From an uncultured archaeon (lineage in GTDB: Archaea > Asgardarchaeota > Thorarchaeia > Thorarchaeales > Thorarchaeaceae), in assembly GCA_964354495.1 (NCBI GenBank), contig CAYHAA010000011.1:76811-108810 (forward strand): a stretch of 32,000 nt of DNA, written 5' to 3'. Both the position numbers and the translations under genes were made by a program. The notes under the pieces are model-generated. The model did not search any database, was not told the DNA's origin, and worked only from the letters and a program-made list of their open reading frames with translations. Numbering within the stretch: position 1 is the first letter of the stretch; each line of letters starts with the position of its first letter. Below are positions 3,208 through 11,130 of the stretch, piece by piece.

Positions 3208-3489
3208 TTACTTACTCAATGAAGCTTTTTCGATTGCTTTAGCAATATCCACACTGGTCGCACCGATGAGAACTGCTTTGTGCTCATCAAGGACGCTCTG
3301 GATTTTCGAGGACAGAATCTGAACATCCACACTGCAGCCAACTATCTTGTCTTCTATTGCTTCAATGGTTGATTCCGGGTGAAGAAAGAAATCGCCTAGT
3401 ATTGTTATCGACTTGATCATCTTGCCCTCTAGGTTCATCTTGATTCTCAACATCTTTCCTCCTTGGACTTTGTAGTCAGCGATTTTCAT
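3208..3489 (-). CDS. lplB: Lipoate-protein ligase accessory subunit (stand-alone C-terminal domain, LplB-like)
   Basis: K..GGK.LRI...I.GDFFLHPE..IE.IE pattern of the LplA C-terminal domain, 6 nt downstream of the catalytic subunit. Confidence 0.85.
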   Translation of the reverse strand: MKIADYKVQGGKMLRIKMNLEGKMIKSITILGDFFLHPESTIEAIEDKIVGCSVDVQILSSKIQSVLDEHKAVLIGATSVDIAKAIEKASLSK

Positions 3490-3495
3490 GAAAGT

Positions 3496-4263
3496 TCACC
3501 TCTTGAAGTTCCATTCTCGAGTTGAGTATTTTTCTACAACCAGACGACTGGCTGTGTCCCGTTCGTTCTTGGTGAGATGTCCTCGAACCAGTTCTATGCC
3601 TAATGCCTCCGAGAAACCAGTCTGCAATGCGTTTCTAAGTTCATTCATTGAAACTTTTCTACCTAGAACCTCTCTGATTGAGGTCACACGTTGCTTTACG
3701 TCTGCTATCATCTTGTCAGAGATCTTTTCCTTGGGAACCTTCAAGGCTTGAAACATCATGTTGACATCTAGGTCTAGCAGTACTGTTCCATGTTGAAGTA
3801 TGCAGGAATGCCGCCTCGTTTGAGCATTACCTGACACTTTCTTTCCCCCTACTGTGACATCATTGATCGGCATGAATTCCGACTTGATACCCAAGTGGTC
3901 AAGTCCAGAAATTAGACCGTTGCAGAGGATTCGATAGGAGTCATTTATGTCATCTGGTCCCAGTCTGTGTTCTCTGGGAATAATGATACTATACGTGATT
4001 TCTCCCGCACAATCGTGATAGACTGCCCCGCCGCCCGTTATCCTACGAATAACATCAATGTTCTGAGAATGACAGAATTGTGTATCCACCTCATCCATCA
4101 TGCCCTGAAAAGTACCAATCGATACTGCAGAAGGAGACCATCGGTAGAGTCGTAGCGTTGGTCCTGCGTTGCCATCTTTCATGCAGAGCATGACTGCTTC
4201 ATCAATAGCCATATTCTCAAAGGCTGTATGTGCTTTTAGGTCGATGAATCGGAACTCCTCCAT
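3496..4263 (-). CDS. lplA: Lipoate-protein ligase catalytic subunit
   Basis: NMAIDEA, LRLYRW.P.AVSIG.FQ, RRITGGGAVYHD, KKVSGNAQ and QHGT motifs of the BPL/LplA/LipB family. Confidence 0.92.
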   Translation of the reverse strand: MEEFRFIDLKAHTAFENMAIDEAVMLCMKDGNAGPTLRLYRWSPSAVSIGTFQGMMDEVDTQFCHSQNIDVIRRITGGGAVYHDCAGEITYSIIIPREHRLGPDDINDSYRILCNGLISGLDHLGIKSEFMPINDVTVGGKKVSGNAQTRRHSCILQHGTVLLDLDVNMMFQALKVPKEKISDKMIADVKQRVTSIREVLGRKVSMNELRNALQTGFSEALGIELVRGHLTKNERDTASRLVVEKYSTREWNFKR

Positions 4264-4266
4264 AGC

Positions 4267-5250
4267 TCACACCAGCTGGGTCTCTTGAATTGCAGCAAGG
4301 ATTTCCTTCTTGTTCAATGGTCTTGGATAGTTATACATTGGACCTTGAGGTCTCTCGTTATAATATGGCCGGTTGCATCCTTCGCATCCCGTCACCTGAA
4401 ACGCCTCTCCGGAAGACAAAGCGCTAGTCATCGATTTGTGTTCGATATCTATCGTCAGTCTTCCGTTGTCATCTTTTCCGATTTGTTTGGAGCTAAGGCC
4501 TCCTTTGGAGGCGAGATGTCTGACGACTTGGATTCTTCTGTACGAGGACAGAGATGGAGGTTCGGCTCTCTCTAGGGAAGTACCTCTGATGCTTGTGAAT
4601 GCAAAGAGGCCCACACCAATCCCCATTTTGTACATCAGCAGGATGAAATCCGCTGCCTCTTTCTCAGTTTCCCCCAGACCAATGATGAGATGTGTTGTAA
4701 CATTCCCCTTACCAAAGACCTCTAGTGCCTCTCGTAGAGCATTAACATGGCGATCCCATCGATAAGGAGTGCCACGCCTTTCACCCTTTATTTCTTCGAA
4801 GAGTGACGGGGTACTCGCATCAAGTGCAATCCCGATATTCGTTACGCCAGCCTCTCTCAGTCTGTTGAGGTCATCTCTATCCACAGGATGAATTGCCACT
4901 GATATCGGGAGCTTGGTCAACTCACGTAGTCTTCCCACAATATCGACTACATCGTCCACGACAGATGCATAGCAGATGGTCTGAATACAAACACGTCTGA
5001 ACTGACTGCGTTCGGGCCAGGCTCTCGTGACTTCATTGATATTATAATCCGGCCAAGATATTCTGGATAATCTATCCGATGCAGAAGAGCTGTCCCTAGC
5101 TTGAGGGCAAAACGCGCAGTTCGATTCGCATTTGCCATCACGATAGGTCATCAGAAAGGCAGTTGTGAAATATGGGTTTGAAGTACCTGTTTCTAGTCCA
5201 AACTCGATAGCTGTTCCTATCGATAGACGCACTCTCTCAACCACTGGCAT
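4267..5250 (-). CDS. lipS2: Radical SAM protein, LipS2-type archaeal lipoyl synthase subunit
   Basis: CxxxCxxC (CESNCAFC) plus C-terminal TGCEGCNRPYYNERP, resembling the TxGCPxC(N/D)RP motif described for LipS2. Directly upstream of lplA. Confidence 0.78.
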   Translation of the reverse strand: MPVVERVRLSIGTAIEFGLETGTSNPYFTTAFLMTYRDGKCESNCAFCPQARDSSSASDRLSRISWPDYNINEVTRAWPERSQFRRVCIQTICYASVVDDVVDIVGRLRELTKLPISVAIHPVDRDDLNRLREAGVTNIGIALDASTPSLFEEIKGERRGTPYRWDRHVNALREALEVFGKGNVTTHLIIGLGETEKEAADFILLMYKMGIGVGLFAFTSIRGTSLERAEPPSLSSYRRIQVVRHLASKGGLSSKQIGKDDNGRLTIDIEHKSMTSALSSGEAFQVTGCEGCNRPYYNERPQGPMYNYPRPLNKKEILAAIQETQLV

Positions 5251-6236
5251 CAACTCTCATGACGATCTTCATGCCTTGTCCGATCTCGCACAGGCTCTAT
5301 TTCTAGTATGCCGGTATTATCGTCTTCAAGGAGGTGTCTGAAACCCCCATAACGTTTTGGAATAAGGATGAGTTGAGGCATGCCCCTCCTCTTGTACTGA
5401 GGCGGATAGAGGAAACAGGACAATCCACGCAACTCAATTCCGTCAAACGAAGTCCTTATTGAAGGCCCTCTTCTGAAGTAGGTGACTCGGCCCCGACTAG
5501 ATGCAGCAGTACCTACTTGGTTGTTCCCTACACAGACAGCCTCCCCGGCATCTATGCTGTTTCTGCCCAGGACACCACCGTGCTGGTAATGGGACAGCCC
5601 TCCATCGATGATGCCCATTGCGGAGCCGCTTGCATCTTGCGCGGATAGACCACTGAGATCACCAATCTCTGTGTGAATGTCTTGTTGAGGATATCCAATG
5701 GCATGGCCATCAGTGACCTCTGTGATTATCATCTCTATGTTTGATGGAGCAGTGCCTACTCGATGAGGCTCAATCTCCATTCGGACGTCAAGAAGTATTG
5801 ATTTGCTCGAGCGTGTGAAGTTGCTTGCTGCCATGGATTCGACGTGATAATGCGGACCCGTCCAATAGTTGAAGTATCGAGACCGAATCGTGCGCCCGAT
5901 TTCGTCTCCCTCGTCGACCTTGTTACCTTCACGAACTGCAGGCGCAACATGCATTACTCGCACGATATCCGATTCTGCATTCTCTGGTGCGAGCGCAATA
6001 CCGTAATCGAAATCGTCTGTAGGAAATGGCTTGATACTTCCCATGTGTAGCTTCTTGATCCTTATTACTCGACCTGAAACAGGAGCTAGGACAGGACCAC
6101 CCCATTCCTGATGTCGAGGATAGATATCGACAGCAGTTCCAAGACCATGTCCAATGTATGGGCTATTGAAATAGGAGAAGTACGCATCATCTGGAGCTCG
6201 TATCTCCATTCCCTTCGCGGCTGCAACAATGCGCAT
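5250..6236 (-). CDS. Conserved archaeal protein with M23/LytM-like metallopeptidase features
   Basis: H(x6)D in YIGHGLGTAVDIYP, APVSGRV, MHV...V.EG..V..GD.IG and GPHYHVE (HxH). Start at ATG 6236 (GAGGAG upstream) or 6275. Its TGA overlaps the lipS2 ATG (TGATG). Confidence 0.6.
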   Translation of the reverse strand: MRIVAAAKGMEIRAPDDAYFSYFNSPYIGHGLGTAVDIYPRHQEWGGPVLAPVSGRVIRIKKLHMGSIKPFPTDDFDYGIALAPENAESDIVRVMHVAPAVREGNKVDEGDEIGRTIRSRYFNYWTGPHYHVESMAASNFTRSSKSILLDVRMEIEPHRVGTAPSNIEMIITEVTDGHAIGYPQQDIHTEIGDLSGLSAQDASGSAMGIIDGGLSHYQHGGVLGRNSIDAGEAVCVGNNQVGTAASSRGRVTYFRRGPSIRTSFDGIELRGLSCFLYPPQYKRRGMPQLILIPKRYGGFRHLLEDDNTGILEIEPVRDRTRHEDRHES

Positions 6237-6310
6237 CAGATGCGTCTCCTCATTCCTAGCTGGCGAGAGATCCATGCATGCCCAATCGATATGAGTATGC
6301 CGTCTACCTC

Positions 6311-7681
6311 CTAAATGACTCTGGCTGCATCATAGAGGAGCGCTACCCTCCCTTTCCATGCTGAAAGTCCTCTTGGAGAATCAGGATATTGTGCGTAGAG
6401 CGCCCGAATATCATTCATCAATTTGGCAACCTTGGATACACGAAGCAAGAGGGGCACTTTCCCAAAACCAGCGACCAACCGCTTGAACTTCTCACCCGCA
6501 CCGAACTTAACTTCTCCAGTCATTGATGTGTCGAGGAGGTCGCTTGCCTTGATTATTCGCTTCTTGAAAGCAAAGTCAATGTCCTCATTTGTGACATTAA
6601 GCAAGAACCACCTGAATATATCCAAGGCTGCTTGCTTGGAACCATAGCTCTTGTGATATCTGGGATTGTATGCCCAGAGCGACTCAATTGAAGTATCATT
6701 TCCTTCTATGGCCTCTGAAGCTGTAATCCCTGCGTGTGCGCCTCCAAGCATCGAAGATCCTATGCCACCTCCATGTACCGGATTGACCTGGCACGCTGCA
6801 TCTCCGACAAGCATGAAGTTGTCATCGACCATCGTATCAATCGGTCTACGAATCGGGGCGACTCCACCACCACTGTCAAGGACCCTGATCTCTCCCCACA
6901 TATCCATCCATATCTTCTTGACGAAATCGTATTGAATGTCCTTCGGATTGCGGTGACCATCTATGGTCATAACGCCATTTCCGACGTTGACCCGATTTCT
7001 ACCCTGAGGGAAGACCCATGTGTAGCCGCCTAGTGTTTCTTGCTGGTTCCAAAATATCTCGAGTATATCGGGGGTTTCAAAGTCGAAGTCAGGAGTTTCA
7101 TAGATGTCTCTCCAAGCAACCATCCTGTCTTCATTCGCAATCTCCCTTTCTACTGGCGAAGATTCCGGCATTTGTCTTCTTAGCAGCCCTGAAGCTCCAG
7201 TGGCATCAACAACAATGCGGGATGTGAATTCCTTCTCTGATTCTCCCTCTCTCGTAGCCCTTAAACCTGAAACCTTGCCACCCTTGAAAAGCAGCTTATT
7301 GACACGAGTACATGACATGACCTCAGCTCCTGCACTCTCAGCAAGGCCAACAAACCATTGTCCCATCTTGAGCCTGTTGAATGACATACCTACCGTTGTG
7401 GGTCCTGCCATTCGCATTCTGTGGTCTCTATCTGGAGCAATGAGATCAATTCCGTTCACCTCGTATTCGACAATGTCCTTGGGGAGTTCAGGTATACCAA
7501 CTAGTTCCCTGAGTTCATGAATGTGATGAGACCCTAGAGCATCGCCACAAGTCTTCTTCCCTATACTATCACGTTCCTTTTTGTCAATAAGCAGAACTGT
7601 GTGTCCTCTCTTGGCTAGGGTATATGCAGTCGTTGCGCCCCCGGTACCGGCGCCTGCTACAATTACGTCATAGTCAAACAT
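6311..7681 (-). CDS. Geranylgeranyl reductase (digeranylgeranylglycerophospholipid reductase), Sulfolobus type
   Basis: FAD-binding GAGTGG, IGKKTCGDA, GGYTWVFP, GDAA..VNPVHGGGIG, YG.KQA.LDIFR and YP.SP motifs closely follow the Sulfolobus acidocaldarius GGR as I recall it. Start at ATG 7681. Confidence 0.88.
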   Translation of the reverse strand: MFDYDVIVAGAGTGGATTAYTLAKRGHTVLLIDKKERDSIGKKTCGDALGSHHIHELRELVGIPELPKDIVEYEVNGIDLIAPDRDHRMRMAGPTTVGMSFNRLKMGQWFVGLAESAGAEVMSCTRVNKLLFKGGKVSGLRATREGESEKEFTSRIVVDATGASGLLRRQMPESSPVEREIANEDRMVAWRDIYETPDFDFETPDILEIFWNQQETLGGYTWVFPQGRNRVNVGNGVMTIDGHRNPKDIQYDFVKKIWMDMWGEIRVLDSGGGVAPIRRPIDTMVDDNFMLVGDAACQVNPVHGGGIGSSMLGGAHAGITASEAIEGNDTSIESLWAYNPRYHKSYGSKQAALDIFRWFLLNVTNEDIDFAFKKRIIKASDLLDTSMTGEVKFGAGEKFKRLVAGFGKVPLLLRVSKVAKLMNDIRALYAQYPDSPRGLSAWKGRVALLYDAARVI

Positions 7682-7683
7682 AG

Positions 7684-8418
7684 CTATTCCTTCCTTGATG
7701 ACTTCCAACTCTGTTCCAGAAACCCTTCAAGCTGCGTTGAGATTAGAGCATTATCGGCCCAACCGCACACTGTTAAATCAGGCATTGAGATTAATGCTTC
7801 TATTGAATCTATCACCAAATCAACCGCGTGAGTATCTGTTCTTGTCCGATACTGTATTCCTAGTTGTGAGGTATCCGGTCTTCTTCCCAGTATTGCTCGA
7901 ATCTTGACTCTTCGCTCCCTCGCCTCTAGAAGTTTTTCATGAACCATCATACCCAGAGAGTCAAGGTCCGGAGCAACAAGGAATATCGATTTCTCCGCTC
8001 TGCCAATCATAGCGATTATTTTCGCAAGGACGTCTGTGCTGCCTCTAATAGTATAGATAAGGGCAGGTATCGTAATTCTTGATATGCTTGATTCTTGTAG
8101 GTATTTCAAATCCTGAAGAAGCTGCGCTATCTTGGAAGAAAACATCTCCTCAATATGAGCGAGGGGCGCAAATTGGTACACCTTCGGTCTACCTTGCTGA
8201 AGAACGACTAGCCCTCTCCCAATTAGTGTGTCAAGAACAGCATACAGATTAGCATGATGTATGCCCGTTTCTGCGTAAATATCAGCAACGGTTGCTGGTT
8301 TTTGACCGATTAACGCCAGAATCACTGCAGTTTCATGAGCACCAAAGCCCAATTCTCGCAAACACGAACTTGCTCGCGTCCTGATCTCATCAGCAGTCGT
8401 ATCACTTGAAGTGGCCAT
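7684..8418 (-). CDS. TrmB family transcriptional regulator
   Basis: N-terminal wHTH (LGF...E..V...L..ATV.DI...TGI....LY.VL..L..RGLV...GRP..Y) followed by a PLD-like effector domain (A.KSI.L, RGV.IR-like RRVKIR). Confidence 0.85.
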   Translation of the reverse strand: MATSSDTTADEIRTRASSCLRELGFGAHETAVILALIGQKPATVADIYAETGIHHANLYAVLDTLIGRGLVVLQQGRPKVYQFAPLAHIEEMFSSKIAQLLQDLKYLQESSISRITIPALIYTIRGSTDVLAKIIAMIGRAEKSIFLVAPDLDSLGMMVHEKLLEARERRVKIRAILGRRPDTSQLGIQYRTRTDTHAVDLVIDSIEALISMPDLTVCGWADNALISTQLEGFLEQSWKSSRKE

Positions 8419-8447: not shown

Positions 8448-9365
8448 TTATATTCTTTGTGAAAGTGCGAATCCAGCAAGTAGCTCCTTCAATACATCTC
8501 GTGCAGCGATTGCAGTGATTCCTGTTGAATCCACGAGGGGATTGAGCTCCACAATATCAGCATACTTGACCTTTCCAGTTGAAAACGCAACTTGGAGCAG
8601 CTTCACTAGCTCTTCCATCGAGAGACCGCCTGATTCGGGATGGCTCACACCTGGCGCAGTTTGAGGCGCGAGCACATCAAGATCAATAGATACGTAGAGT
8701 ATATCCACCCGTTGGCCGAGTTCAGTGATGCGTGCTGAAACTGGGGACTTACTGTACCCATCGAGCTCCTCGCGTTGTTCAGGTACGGCTGACCTAATGT
8801 CATACGCGACGATATCACTTGTTTTCACAATTCCGTTGTCAATGATACGTCTCACAGTGGTAGCATGCGACAACTGATATCCACCCATATCTGAATACAG
8901 GTCTGCATGCGCATCGAGGTAGACCAAGCCGTACTTCGAAGGCCTGCCTCGCTTCAGTCCCTTCATTATTGGGTACGTGATGAAATGGTCACCTCCTAGG
9001 AAGACGAGAGAGCTTGGTCGAGTGGCAAGTTTCGCGCATGCCTCAGAAATGTCAATTGCCGCGGCATCTGGCATGCGCAGAACAACCTCGAGGTCGCCTA
9101 CATCTTCAAGAGTGATGCGTTTGGAAAGCGGCTTCGGTGATGATGCTCTATCGCCGATGGATAGTGGATAGCTGTGCGACCTCTCACTGTCCGTGGCTTG
9201 CCGAATGGCATCAGGTCCAAAGCGATTACCCGGCATATAGCTAGATGCAAGATCGTAAGGCACCCCAATGATGCCAACATCAGGTTCTCCTTTCTTGGGC
9301 GAAGGTATACCAAAGAATGTTCGCGGCAATCGTAGGTAACCGTTGAGTTCATCTTTGAGGGGCAT
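8448..9365 (-). CDS. speB: Agmatinase / ureohydrolase (arginase superfamily)
   Basis: GVPYD, G.RFGP.AIR, GGDH.IT, DAHADL, SIDLDVL.P..APG and ELNP motifs. Substrate inferred from family only. Confidence 0.82.
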   Translation of the reverse strand: MPLKDELNGYLRLPRTFFGIPSPKKGEPDVGIIGVPYDLASSYMPGNRFGPDAIRQATDSERSHSYPLSIGDRASSPKPLSKRITLEDVGDLEVVLRMPDAAAIDISEACAKLATRPSSLVFLGGDHFITYPIMKGLKRGRPSKYGLVYLDAHADLYSDMGGYQLSHATTVRRIIDNGIVKTSDIVAYDIRSAVPEQREELDGYSKSPVSARITELGQRVDILYVSIDLDVLAPQTAPGVSHPESGGLSMEELVKLLQVAFSTGKVKYADIVELNPLVDSTGITAIAARDVLKELLAGFALSQRI

Positions 9366-9480: not shown

Positions 9481-11130
9481 TTATACTTGGTACGATGCGC
9501 CACCGTGGGCGCCCCTGCCTCGAACCATCAAGGCAATGTTGAGAAAGGCTCCCAGTCCTACTACACCAACTGCAATACCTGTGAATGGCATTCCGTCATT
9601 GAACATCTGAGTCAAGAGACCCAATGGGTCTGCACTGACAGTGTAGCCATCGATGTGTGTTGACTTCATGTAAGTGGTTGCATTGTATGTATAGATCATT
9701 TCAGCAGGCATGAATGCATACCCACCTTCATACGCGAATGTCACTGTGTATGTGAAATTCAACCATCCTCCTGCAGGAATGCTTCCTGAGGTTGCGAGAG
9801 TATCTCCTGTGACATTGACAGAGTCGTAGGTTTCTCCAATCTCAATATCTACAACTGTGACATTGGTGATTGCCCCGGGCCCGTCATTATGTACTGCAAC
9901 GACAACATCGACAGATTCTCCAGGAGTTACTGTGGCAGGACTGAACTCACGTGTGACGGTGACAAGGGGTGGGAAATCTCCTTCAATGAAGTTGACAGTG
10001 TAGTCCGTTTCTGTGGAGGATGTTGCATTCCAAAACACCATACCTGATTCGTTGTCATAGTGTGTTCGATTCAAAGCTTCATACTCAGGACTGTAAGATG
10101 TGATATTCACGGTTTGGGGCATGGATAATACTACGAACGATTGACCGTCGTCCAGGCCACTCACATTGCCACTTGACTTTCCAAGAAGATCCTCAAAGAT
10201 ATTGAGTTCTGTGGAGGAAGTAGTCAGGACCTGGTCTCCGATGTATCCTGCAAAAACGACTGCAAGTGGACCATCAAGCTCCGGCATCTGGGAGAGTGCG
10301 AATGACGACGCTGAAGGTGTACTGTTCGTAAAGCCACCAATGAGGTCTGCCAACGCACCGAGGTCAGGTATGGCCACAAGTCCAGCTCCCGAGGCTCGAG
10401 CCTCAGAAAAGATCGTTTCATCAATAGAGCCCAGAAAACCTGAGTCGTCCATCACGCTAAACACGCTGCTGACAGCTTCTCCAAACGTATTGCTGACTTG
10501 AGAGATGAATACATCAATGCTCTCGAAGGGTAATGTGACAATCATTTCTGGCGGGAAGAAGCTCTCATCAATCCTCAGATTGAGTAGGTCTGAGAACACG
10601 AACCCGAAGGCAAGATTGAGATGAGCCTTTATGGCTGCCATATTCGTCTGAGCAGCTGCTGCCTCTGCATTCACAAAGATATTGACGAGAAGGCTGAAAT
10701 CAGTTCCGAGCATGGCAAGCAATGAATTCACATCGAGACCACCCTCTCCGAACTGAGTTGCAGAGAACTCTCCACCGCCACCGGTGATATTGAGAAGATC
10801 TGAACCTATGAAGTCGATTATGTAGTCCAGAAGCTCACCCTGCGTAGCAACTAGGGCCATCACCATACAGTCTGTGTACATAGGTTCGGTCAGGCCTAAC
10901 GCATCTGACGGAATACCCAGCTGTGCATAGATCACTGCAGGTTCGCCCTGTGGCCCGATAGCTGCGAAGACCAACTCGGCTCCGTTTTCAAGGAGACCAG
11001 TGAAGAAGTCCTCATCGAAATCCTGAGATAGTGCGACTCCACCTGAATTGGCTGCAGCCACATTTGGTGCGGCTAGCAAGAAGCCTATGGCAATTGCTAC
11101 AATTAGTGCGTGCTTATGATTAAGTGTCAT
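9481..11130 (-). CDS. Cell-surface/secreted protein with signal peptide, Ig-like domain and C-terminal membrane anchor
   Basis: Signal peptide MTLNHKHALIVAIAIGFLLAAPNVAAA, acidic and N-x-S/T-rich body, a V.PGE.V.V.V.V.N.G...I.NV.V.D Ig-like (DUF11/BatD-like) segment and a C-terminal hydrophobic helix. GGAGGC SD 8 nt upstream. Confidence 0.8.
   Translation of the reverse strand: MTLNHKHALIVAIAIGFLLAAPNVAAANSGGVALSQDFDEDFFTGLLENGAELVFAAIGPQGEPAVIYAQLGIPSDALGLTEPMYTDCMVMALVATQGELLDYIIDFIGSDLLNITGGGGEFSATQFGEGGLDVNSLLAMLGTDFSLLVNIFVNAEAAAAQTNMAAIKAHLNLAFGFVFSDLLNLRIDESFFPPEMIVTLPFESIDVFISQVSNTFGEAVSSVFSVMDDSGFLGSIDETIFSEARASGAGLVAIPDLGALADLIGGFTNSTPSASSFALSQMPELDGPLAVVFAGYIGDQVLTTSSTELNIFEDLLGKSSGNVSGLDDGQSFVVLSMPQTVNITSYSPEYEALNRTHYDNESGMVFWNATSSTETDYTVNFIEGDFPPLVTVTREFSPATVTPGESVDVVVAVHNDGPGAITNVTVVDIEIGETYDSVNVTGDTLATSGSIPAGGWLNFTYTVTFAYEGGYAFMPAEMIYTYNATTYMKSTHIDGYTVSADPLGLLTQMFNDGMPFTGIAVGVVGLGAFLNIALMVRGRGAHGGASYQV

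Follow-up and report, generated by a model that had tools for sequence, protein, structure and literature searches.

The window analysed here is a 32,000-nucleotide stretch of a Thorarchaeaceae genome (contig CAYHAA010000011.1, positions 76,811 to 108,810), and its minus strand carries a gene of the protein family DUF8155 beside genes of lipoate assembly. The encoded protein is soluble and cytoplasmic. Its N-terminal domain is, in the predicted model, a clear M23/LytM fold that keeps the residues expected of an active zinc hydrolase, and homologous genes stand next to ligase, synthase and GcvH genes in lineage after lineage of the archaea, which makes DUF8155 a concrete and testable candidate. 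The family is probably tied functionally to lipoate attachment; that it is a two-domain accessory zinc hydrolase of the lipoate ligase system, with an N6-acyl-lysine as the likeliest substrate, we take to be an even bet. The family was already catalogued as a Pfam DUF, while the linkage to lipoate genes is new and gives DUF8155 its first functional context. No publication on the family was found in a literature search.

Fold and conserved residues of the DUF8155 protein

The features of the gene and of its product are listed here, with residues numbered as in P0001.

5250..6236, minus strand: DUF8155-family gene, 328 residues from the ATG at 6236 (the longest open reading frame extends to the ATG at 6275); open reading frame list and homologue alignment
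6246..6251, minus strand: GAGGAG, Shine-Dalgarno-like motif upstream of the ATG at 6236
5248..5252, minus strand: TGATG, stop/start overlap with lipS2; read from the sequence
5781..6236, minus strand: N-terminal M23/LytM-fold domain, model residues 1-152; structure searches and a sub-threshold PF01551 match
6126..6149, minus strand: H43-x6-D50, the putative first zinc-ligand motif; invariant in both alignments, codons checked
5949..5951, minus strand: H109, at the position of the M23 catalytic 'YxH' histidine; invariant in both alignments and aligned to 'YLH' of ShyA
5844..5852, minus strand: H142-Y-H144, HxH motif; alignments and profile match to M23 chains
5292..5768, minus strand: C-terminal all-beta domain (DUF8155_C) with a conserved G-I-L-D-G-G-x-P-H-Y motif; alignment and separate fold model

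The longest minus-strand reading frame spans 5250-6275 and would encode 341 residues. Homologues are about 322 residues long and their alignment to the window protein begins at Met14, and the GAGGAG motif, read directly from the sequence, sits 9 nucleotides 5' of the ATG at 6236; the gene is therefore likely to be 5250-6236, with 328 residues, and not the longer frame. Its TGA stop (5252-5250) and the ATG of lipS2 (5250-5248) have one A in common. This overlap of a single nucleotide is confined to the present genome and its closest relative, the other Thorarchaeota having a gap of 16-1034 nucleotides. The lipS2 start in the open reading frame list is the TTG at 5253; the ATG at 5250, overlapping the upstream stop, is the more likely one. 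The DUF8155 gene is present in a single copy in the source genome, and the closest named relatives of its product are from Thorarchaeota. The window protein has neither a signal peptide nor a transmembrane segment (maximum Kyte-Doolittle mean over 19 residues, 0.55).

Modelled with AlphaFold2 from 41 sequences, the protein shows two domains, at a predicted local distance difference test score (pLDDT) of 92.6 and a predicted template modelling score of 0.90. Residues 1-152 align with EnpA (6smk) at a VIA-align Z of 13.0 (root-mean-square deviation 2.4 over 116 residues), and with LytM (2b0p) and lysostaphin (4lxc) at Z of 11.4 and 11.3. M23 chains (EnpA, LytM, lysostaphin, ShyA) head both structure searches, with Foldseek E values of 5e-5 to 1e-3, and nothing else is found at that level; biotinyl and lipoyl barrels reach a Z of only about 5-6. 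The PF01551 (M23) match of 22.8 bits lies below the Pfam gathering threshold of 28.7, and a PDB sequence search with the single protein returned chance Roundabout matches only. The C-terminal half, folded alone, has a pLDDT of 90.8. No convincing PDB match was found for it (best VIA wide Z 5.0, best Foldseek E 0.066, with scattered rows resembling 3C proteases); the ESM Atlas yields DUF8155 clusters only, at template modelling scores of at least 0.67, and Pfam searched at E up to 10 gives nothing beyond one TOBE match (E 0.045) on the Freyarchaeia copy.

Conservation was read from an alignment of 41 homologues and from a broader set of 17 sequences covering ANME-2, Haloferax, Desulfurococcales, Hadarchaeota, Bathyarchaeia and Asgard lineages. 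Residues H43, D50, H109, H142, H144, E146, W138 and R155 are invariant in the 41 sequences, as is an N-terminal F-S-x-F-N-S-P-Y motif specific to the family. H43, D50, H109 and H144 are also invariant in the broader set, and H142 is kept in 16 of its 17 members. To judge from these alignments, the conservation of the motif histidines and aspartate is far above chance. The order and spacing of positions 43, 50, 109, 142 and 144 mirror those of LytM, in which H210, D214 and H293 are the zinc ligands and H260 and H291 the catalytic residues. In a profile search, 'G-P-H-x-H-x-E' and 'R-I-L-H' align to motifs of the M23 domain of phage 2638A (6yj1), SpoIIQ and ShyA.

Neither alignment contains a conserved Cys or a conserved Lys. 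The M23 barrel is kin to lipoyl domains, and a role for the protein as a lipoyl carrier was considered and rejected, there being no conserved Lys and the metal residues being conserved. The window protein has no Pfam or NCBIfam match to the amidase-signature or sirtuin domains of the known lipoamidases, nor any match to the BPL_LplA_LipB catalytic fold (PF21948/PF03099), its fold being M23 instead.

An earlier note on this DNA had placed an M23-like gene at 5250-6236, in TGATG overlap with lipS2, and had described H(x6)D and HxH motifs, a V.EG..V..GD.IG strand, no signal peptide and a C-terminal region of about 170 residues of unknown type. The coordinates and the overlap agree with the present analysis, as do the cytoplasmic character of the protein and the strand; the His and Asp residues are invariant in the 41 homologues, with one substitution among the 17. 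The fold it proposed emerged from the structure prediction and Foldseek search that it had called for, and for the C-terminal region no convincing match of known structure was found.

PF26483 and PF26482 both stand in the precomputed annotation of the window protein's database record (P0005, 99% identity, 100% coverage) and of most homologues. Pfam names these entries DUF8155_C and DUF8155 and assigns them no function, and the two-domain architecture of about 300-330 residues is common to the window protein and the Atlas clusters. Fused forms of 600-2000 residues were not found, in a search that is itself weak evidence. Some records are automatically annotated as 'M23 family metallopeptidase' or 'murein DD-endopeptidase MepM', an annotation that is surely wrong as to substrate. 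The family is rare: at 50% identity, a collection of 1.84 billion proteins contains 289 representatives of it. All named records retrieved are archaeal. Asgard carriers are Thorarchaeota, Jord- and Freyarchaeia, Loki/Promethearchaeota, and Hermod-, Heimdall- and Ranarchaeia, the gene being present in 139 of 400 Asgard genomes; the other carriers are Thermoproteota (Bathyarchaeia, Desulfurococcales/Acidilobales), Hadarchaeota and Halobacteriota (ANME-2/Methanosarcinales and one Haloferax). One ESM Atlas cluster named 'Peptidase family M23' (304 residues, 84 members) lists its taxa as 'Archaea 57%, commonest Synergistota', a putative lead to Synergistota.

Linkage to lipoate genes

Neighbouring genes were located by tblastn with the LipS2, LplA, LplB and GGR-family proteins of the window and the LipS1-like protein of its genome, and on Pfam-annotated contigs. 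In the window, a GGR-family flavoprotein gene, the DUF8155 gene, lipS2, lplA and lplB form a run on the minus strand. The same order on one strand is seen in 44 distinct loci of Thorarchaeota. The pair of GGR and DUF8155 genes, 5-336 nucleotides apart, is found wherever a Thorarchaeota locus includes the left flank, and is kept in four loci (L098, L109, L114, L116) with more than 1.5 kilobases (kb) of downstream flank and no LipS2 in it.

Other lineages show other arrangements. In Jord- and Freyarchaeia (L031-L035, L119-L135; 10 distinct loci), DUF8155 is followed by LplB after 71-114 nucleotides. Two Asgard genomes of this group, the complete Frey genome G117 and G115, were searched whole, and the sole free-standing LplB in each is the one after DUF8155; in G117 the distance to the free-standing LplA is 90 kb. 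In both genomes (for G117, C1:968837-969983) the lplB gene following DUF8155 also stands beside a divergent coaBC, far from lplA. In Bathyarchaeia one operon reads DUF8155-LipS2-LplA-LplB, with LipS1 convergent to it, and at five loci DUF8155 converges on LplA, with LplB beyond where the contig extends. A Hadesarchaea genome and two related contigs of Hadarchaeota type carry LipS2-LipS1-LplA-LplB on the opposite strand, 1.2 kb downstream, with LipS2 scoring 353 bits and LipS1 272 bits. An ANME-2/Methanosarcinales contig (L160:2079-8861) has nine genes on one strand, namely LplA-like, LplB, LplA-like, LipS1-like, LipS2, LipS1, DUF8155, GcvH-like and GcvH, with DUF8155 beginning at the base right after the end of the preceding gene. 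Haloferax sp. DFSO60 has, 55 nucleotides from DUF8155, a divergent LplA-B_cat gene; its best match, a weak one, is the LipL-type octanoyltransferase model. In the Asgard genome G002 the distance from DUF8155 to LipS1 and LipS2 is 4-5 kb.

Taken over all loci, at least eight lineages in four archaeal phyla show linkage to lipoate genes, in at least six arrangements. By a rough estimate a random gene would fall within 5 kb of a lipoate locus about 1-2% of the time, so that chance does not account for a linkage that is found again and again in different arrangements. In a quick maximum-likelihood tree of 102 sequences the linked states form separate clades, with support of 100 for Thor, 99 each for Jord and Frey, and 98 for one clade of Bathyarchaeia; the deep branches are unresolved, and the number of independent gains of linkage is not fixed by this tree. 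All-against-all clustering of the neighbours revealed no other family recurring across lineages: CoaBC is found in Jord/Frey and G002, and a class-III aminotransferase in Loki/Hermod and one other contig.

Several observations weigh against an accessory hydrolase of the lipoate ligase system. About half of the lineages are without lipoate linkage: in Lokiarchaeia none of 13 distinct loci shows it, nor do the Hermod copy, several copies from Bathyarchaeia and those from Desulfurococcales, among others. Among Asgard genomes at least 90% complete, families f5, f13, f19, f21, f28 and f29 have a bona fide LipS2 and no DUF8155. LplA-type (LplA-B_cat) genes are present in 382 of the 400 Asgard genomes and, being near-universal, make phyletic co-occurrence with LplA uninformative. 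In the protein itself, the first motif is an invariant H-x6-D without indel variation in place of the canonical M23 HxxxD, and the ANME-2 copy has Pro instead of H142, the first His of HxH. The C-terminal domain of that copy is poorly conserved.

The four unlinked genomes examined from Loki and family f30 have LipS2 above the cut-off, and unlinked G397 (f32) has a sub-threshold match only. Radical SAM neighbours of DUF8155 in Desulfurococcus and at locus L157 were examined as candidate LipS proteins and rejected; they are not LipS and are not homologous to each other. From the LipS2-bearing families without DUF8155 it follows that DUF8155 is dispensable for lipoate assembly, and thus an accessory gene and not a core one. 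Conversely, of the genomes at least 90% complete, none of the 3 from Jord and none of the 5 from Frey has a bona fide LipS2, and both groups carry DUF8155, which is therefore neither needed for LipS chemistry nor restricted to it. Jord genomes have LplA-containing reading frames of about 540 residues, the size of LplA-LipA fusions. The family-level partner of DUF8155 is the LplA/LplB ligase, LplB in particular, and not LipS2. The suggestion of the earlier note that the gene could be a component of archaeal lipoate assembly thus stands in part: the neighbourhood analysis it proposed found linkage to lipoate genes in many separate archaeal lineages, but the adjacent lipS2 is not the partner across the family and the component is accessory.

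Proposed role and alternative explanations

In the mechanism we propose, the N-terminal M23/LytM-type barrel would bind one zinc through H43, D50 and H144, with H109 and H142 activating the water and stabilizing the transition state as in LytM and lysostaphin; the H-x6-D motif would then be functionally equivalent to HxxxD. The C-terminal all-beta domain would serve in substrate recognition, and together with the S-P-Y of the N-terminal motif it would then form the site that binds the acyl group or the carrier. The analysis shows the fold, the conserved residues, the cytoplasmic location and the gene linkage; the zinc, the hydrolytic activity and the substrate are what we infer. M23 enzymes are amide hydrolases, and the bonds they cleave include those of cross-bridges to side-chain amino groups. 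An N6-acyl-lysine amidohydrolase is the simplest reading, because it fits both this amide chemistry and the linkage to the ligase. DUF8155 would accordingly act as an accessory hydrolase of the archaeal LplA/LplB system, alongside LipS1/LipS2 where these are present, and the most likely reaction would be hydrolysis of the lipoyl- or octanoyl-lysine amide on peptides or carrier proteins. We rate this specific reaction as rather less likely than not.

Archaeal lipoate assembly by LplA/LplB and LipS1/LipS2 has been worked out only recently (PMC13692748, PMC10332631), and what has been reported leaves room for such an activity. The archaeal ligase accepts only free octanoate or lipoate; archaea are without acyl carrier protein (ACP), octanoyl-CoA is no substrate of the Thermococcus ligase, and neither a source of octanoate nor a route for recycling mis-acylated or damaged carriers is known in archaea (PMC13692748, PMC10332631). 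The free acid released by DUF8155 would be the sole substrate that the archaeal ligase accepts and could be re-ligated, as in salvage; alternatively, the enzyme might edit, removing wrong or dead-end acyl groups from carrier proteins. It is possible, if doubtful, that DUF8155 is the first M23-fold lipoamidase and the missing archaeal supplier or recycler of free octanoate or lipoate for an ACP-less LplA/LplB. If so, a peptidoglycan-peptidase fold has been reused inside the cell for cofactor salvage, and an M23 cell-wall fold is at work in the cytoplasm of organisms without peptidoglycan.

The likeness of DUF8155 to peptidase M23 (LytM, lysostaphin, EnpA, ShyA) extends over the barrel fold (Z 10-13), the order His, Asp, His, HxH with similar spacing, and the 'G-D-x-I-G ... 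G-P-H-x-H-x-E' signature. Unlike M23 peptidases, which are secreted or periplasmic and cut peptidoglycan cross-bridges, DUF8155 is cytoplasmic and comes from archaea without peptidoglycan (none is known in Asgard archaea), has H-x6-D and not HxxxD, and falls below the Pfam M23 cut-off; it also has its own C-terminal beta domain, the N-terminal FS-x-F-N-S-P-Y motif and a lipoate gene context. The lipoamidases Lpa (Enterococcus faecalis), CobB and SIRT4, the last two being sirtuins, resemble it in the proposed reaction alone, hydrolysis of the lipoyl-lysine amide. Lpa has a Ser-Ser-Lys amidase signature and the sirtuins are NAD-dependent, folds and chemistry both being unrelated to DUF8155. A parallel in context is given by lipT, lipX and lipY of the bacterial sLpl(AB)-LipS1/S2 clusters, which are likewise non-core genes within lipoate clusters with roles inferred or unknown (PMC10332631), but differ in family, encoding an FAD reductase, a glutamine amidotransferase-like protein and a transporter. 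Neither 'M23' nor 'peptidase' occurs in that paper, the main comparative study of LipS1/S2 clusters.

A general cytoplasmic peptidase, acting for example on Gly-rich or small peptides, would have no role in lipoate metabolism and would owe its adjacency to hitch-hiking. Some unlinked copies do lie near amino-acid or peptide genes, such as Aminotran_3 in Loki, Hermod and locus L060, Peptidase_M19, RidA and PALP at L060, and Peptidase_M20, PALP and S8 at L161, and the dispensability of DUF8155 in many LipS2-bearing families points in the same direction. These themes are, however, confined to one or two related lineages, whereas the linkage to LplA, LplB, LipS and GcvH genes crosses phyla in varied orders and orientations, far from the frequency expected of a random gene, and we consider a general peptidase unlikely. 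The M23 fold has also been reused outside classical peptidoglycan cleavage in the LytM factors EnvC, NlpD, DipM and SpoIIQ, which raises the prospect of a non-hydrolytic adaptor or activator that binds or regulates the ligase or the lipoyl synthase, or presents carriers. M23 domains often serve as regulators, and the structure search itself matched three of these factors (EnvC, DipM, SpoIIQ); the ANME-2 copy is without one catalytic His, and LplB, the partner in Jord/Frey, is a non-catalytic subunit. In contrast to DUF8155, these factors are extracytoplasmic and, being degenerate, have lost their catalytic residues and metal ligands; DUF8155 keeps all five catalytic-position residues in 41 of 41 and 16 of 17 sequences, and the adaptor appears distinctly improbable.

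Tanabe et al. postulated unknown amidotransferases replacing LipL (PMC10332631), and DUF8155 could in principle be one of these, relaying octanoyl or lipoyl groups between carriers, from GcvH to E2 domains. The ANME-2 copy directly before two GcvH genes and the Haloferax copy beside a weak LipL-like gene are compatible with such a relay. M23 chemistry, however, employs a zinc-activated water with no acyl-enzyme intermediate, and the lack of a conserved Cys or Lys in the family likewise speaks against transfer, which we rate as slightly more improbable again. A partnership with the upstream GGR-family flavoprotein in isoprenoid lipid metabolism would explain why the two genes are adjacent in every left-flanked Thorarchaeota locus, including the four without LipS2. 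Yet no GGR gene was found near DUF8155 in the loci examined outside Thorarchaeota, and the flavoprotein could belong to the lipoate clusters as a LipT-like protein (PMC10332631); we give this partnership a very slim chance. The connection to lipid metabolism made in the earlier note has no basis other than this neighbour, confined to Thorarchaeota, and is not sustained. An accessory hydrolase acting on N6-acyl-lysine is the reading we prefer among these.

Neighbouring genes in the window

The genes on either side of the DUF8155 gene are given below; the profile score of lipS2 bears out the identity assigned to it in the earlier note.

3208..3489, minus strand: lplB, small subunit of the ligase (Lip_prot_lig_C); PF10437, E 1.7e-7
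3496..4263, minus strand: lplA, catalytic subunit of lipoate-protein ligase; PF21948, E 4e-57
4267..5250, minus strand: lipS2, radical SAM lipoyl synthase subunit; NF053743, 340 bits against a cut-off of 270
6311..7708, minus strand: GGR-family flavoprotein, directly upstream; profile matches, pairing conserved in Thorarchaeota
7684-8418, minus strand: TrmB-family regulator, upstream gene
8448-9365, minus strand: arginase/agmatinase-family protein, upstream gene
9481-11130, minus strand: 549-residue protein with weak TRAP_beta/DUF11/CARDB matches, upstream gene

The source genome has 12 GGR paralogues. The upstream GGR protein and a paralogue 35% identical to it (G000:C1:560966-562306) both score about 435 bits on DGGGPL_reductase, for which the cut-off is 580. 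The upstream flavoprotein may be either a lipid reductase or a LipT-like reductase, and one of these two paralogues may be a LipT-like reductase of lipoate clusters. A likeness of LipT to GGR proteins is putative, and the eLife 2018 paper has no mention of 'geranylgeranyl'. The LipS1-like radical SAM gene of the genome (G000 contig C20:719-1525, locus L051) scores 211 bits, a little short of the 230 set for NF053742. Since lipS2 is on another contig, the synthase subunits are unlinked in this genome.

Three clear GcvH-family genes (C3:136178-136537, C1:435092-435427, C7:83144-83482) and a weak fourth are present in the source genome, a number of lipoyl carriers exceeding the need of a single glycine cleavage system. 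Among Thorarchaeota (L002-L030 compared with the window), DUF8155 proteins are 38-58% identical outside the nearest relative and diverge much faster than their neighbours, for which the identities are 63-85% for GGR, 54-71% for LipS2 and 57-79% for LplA.

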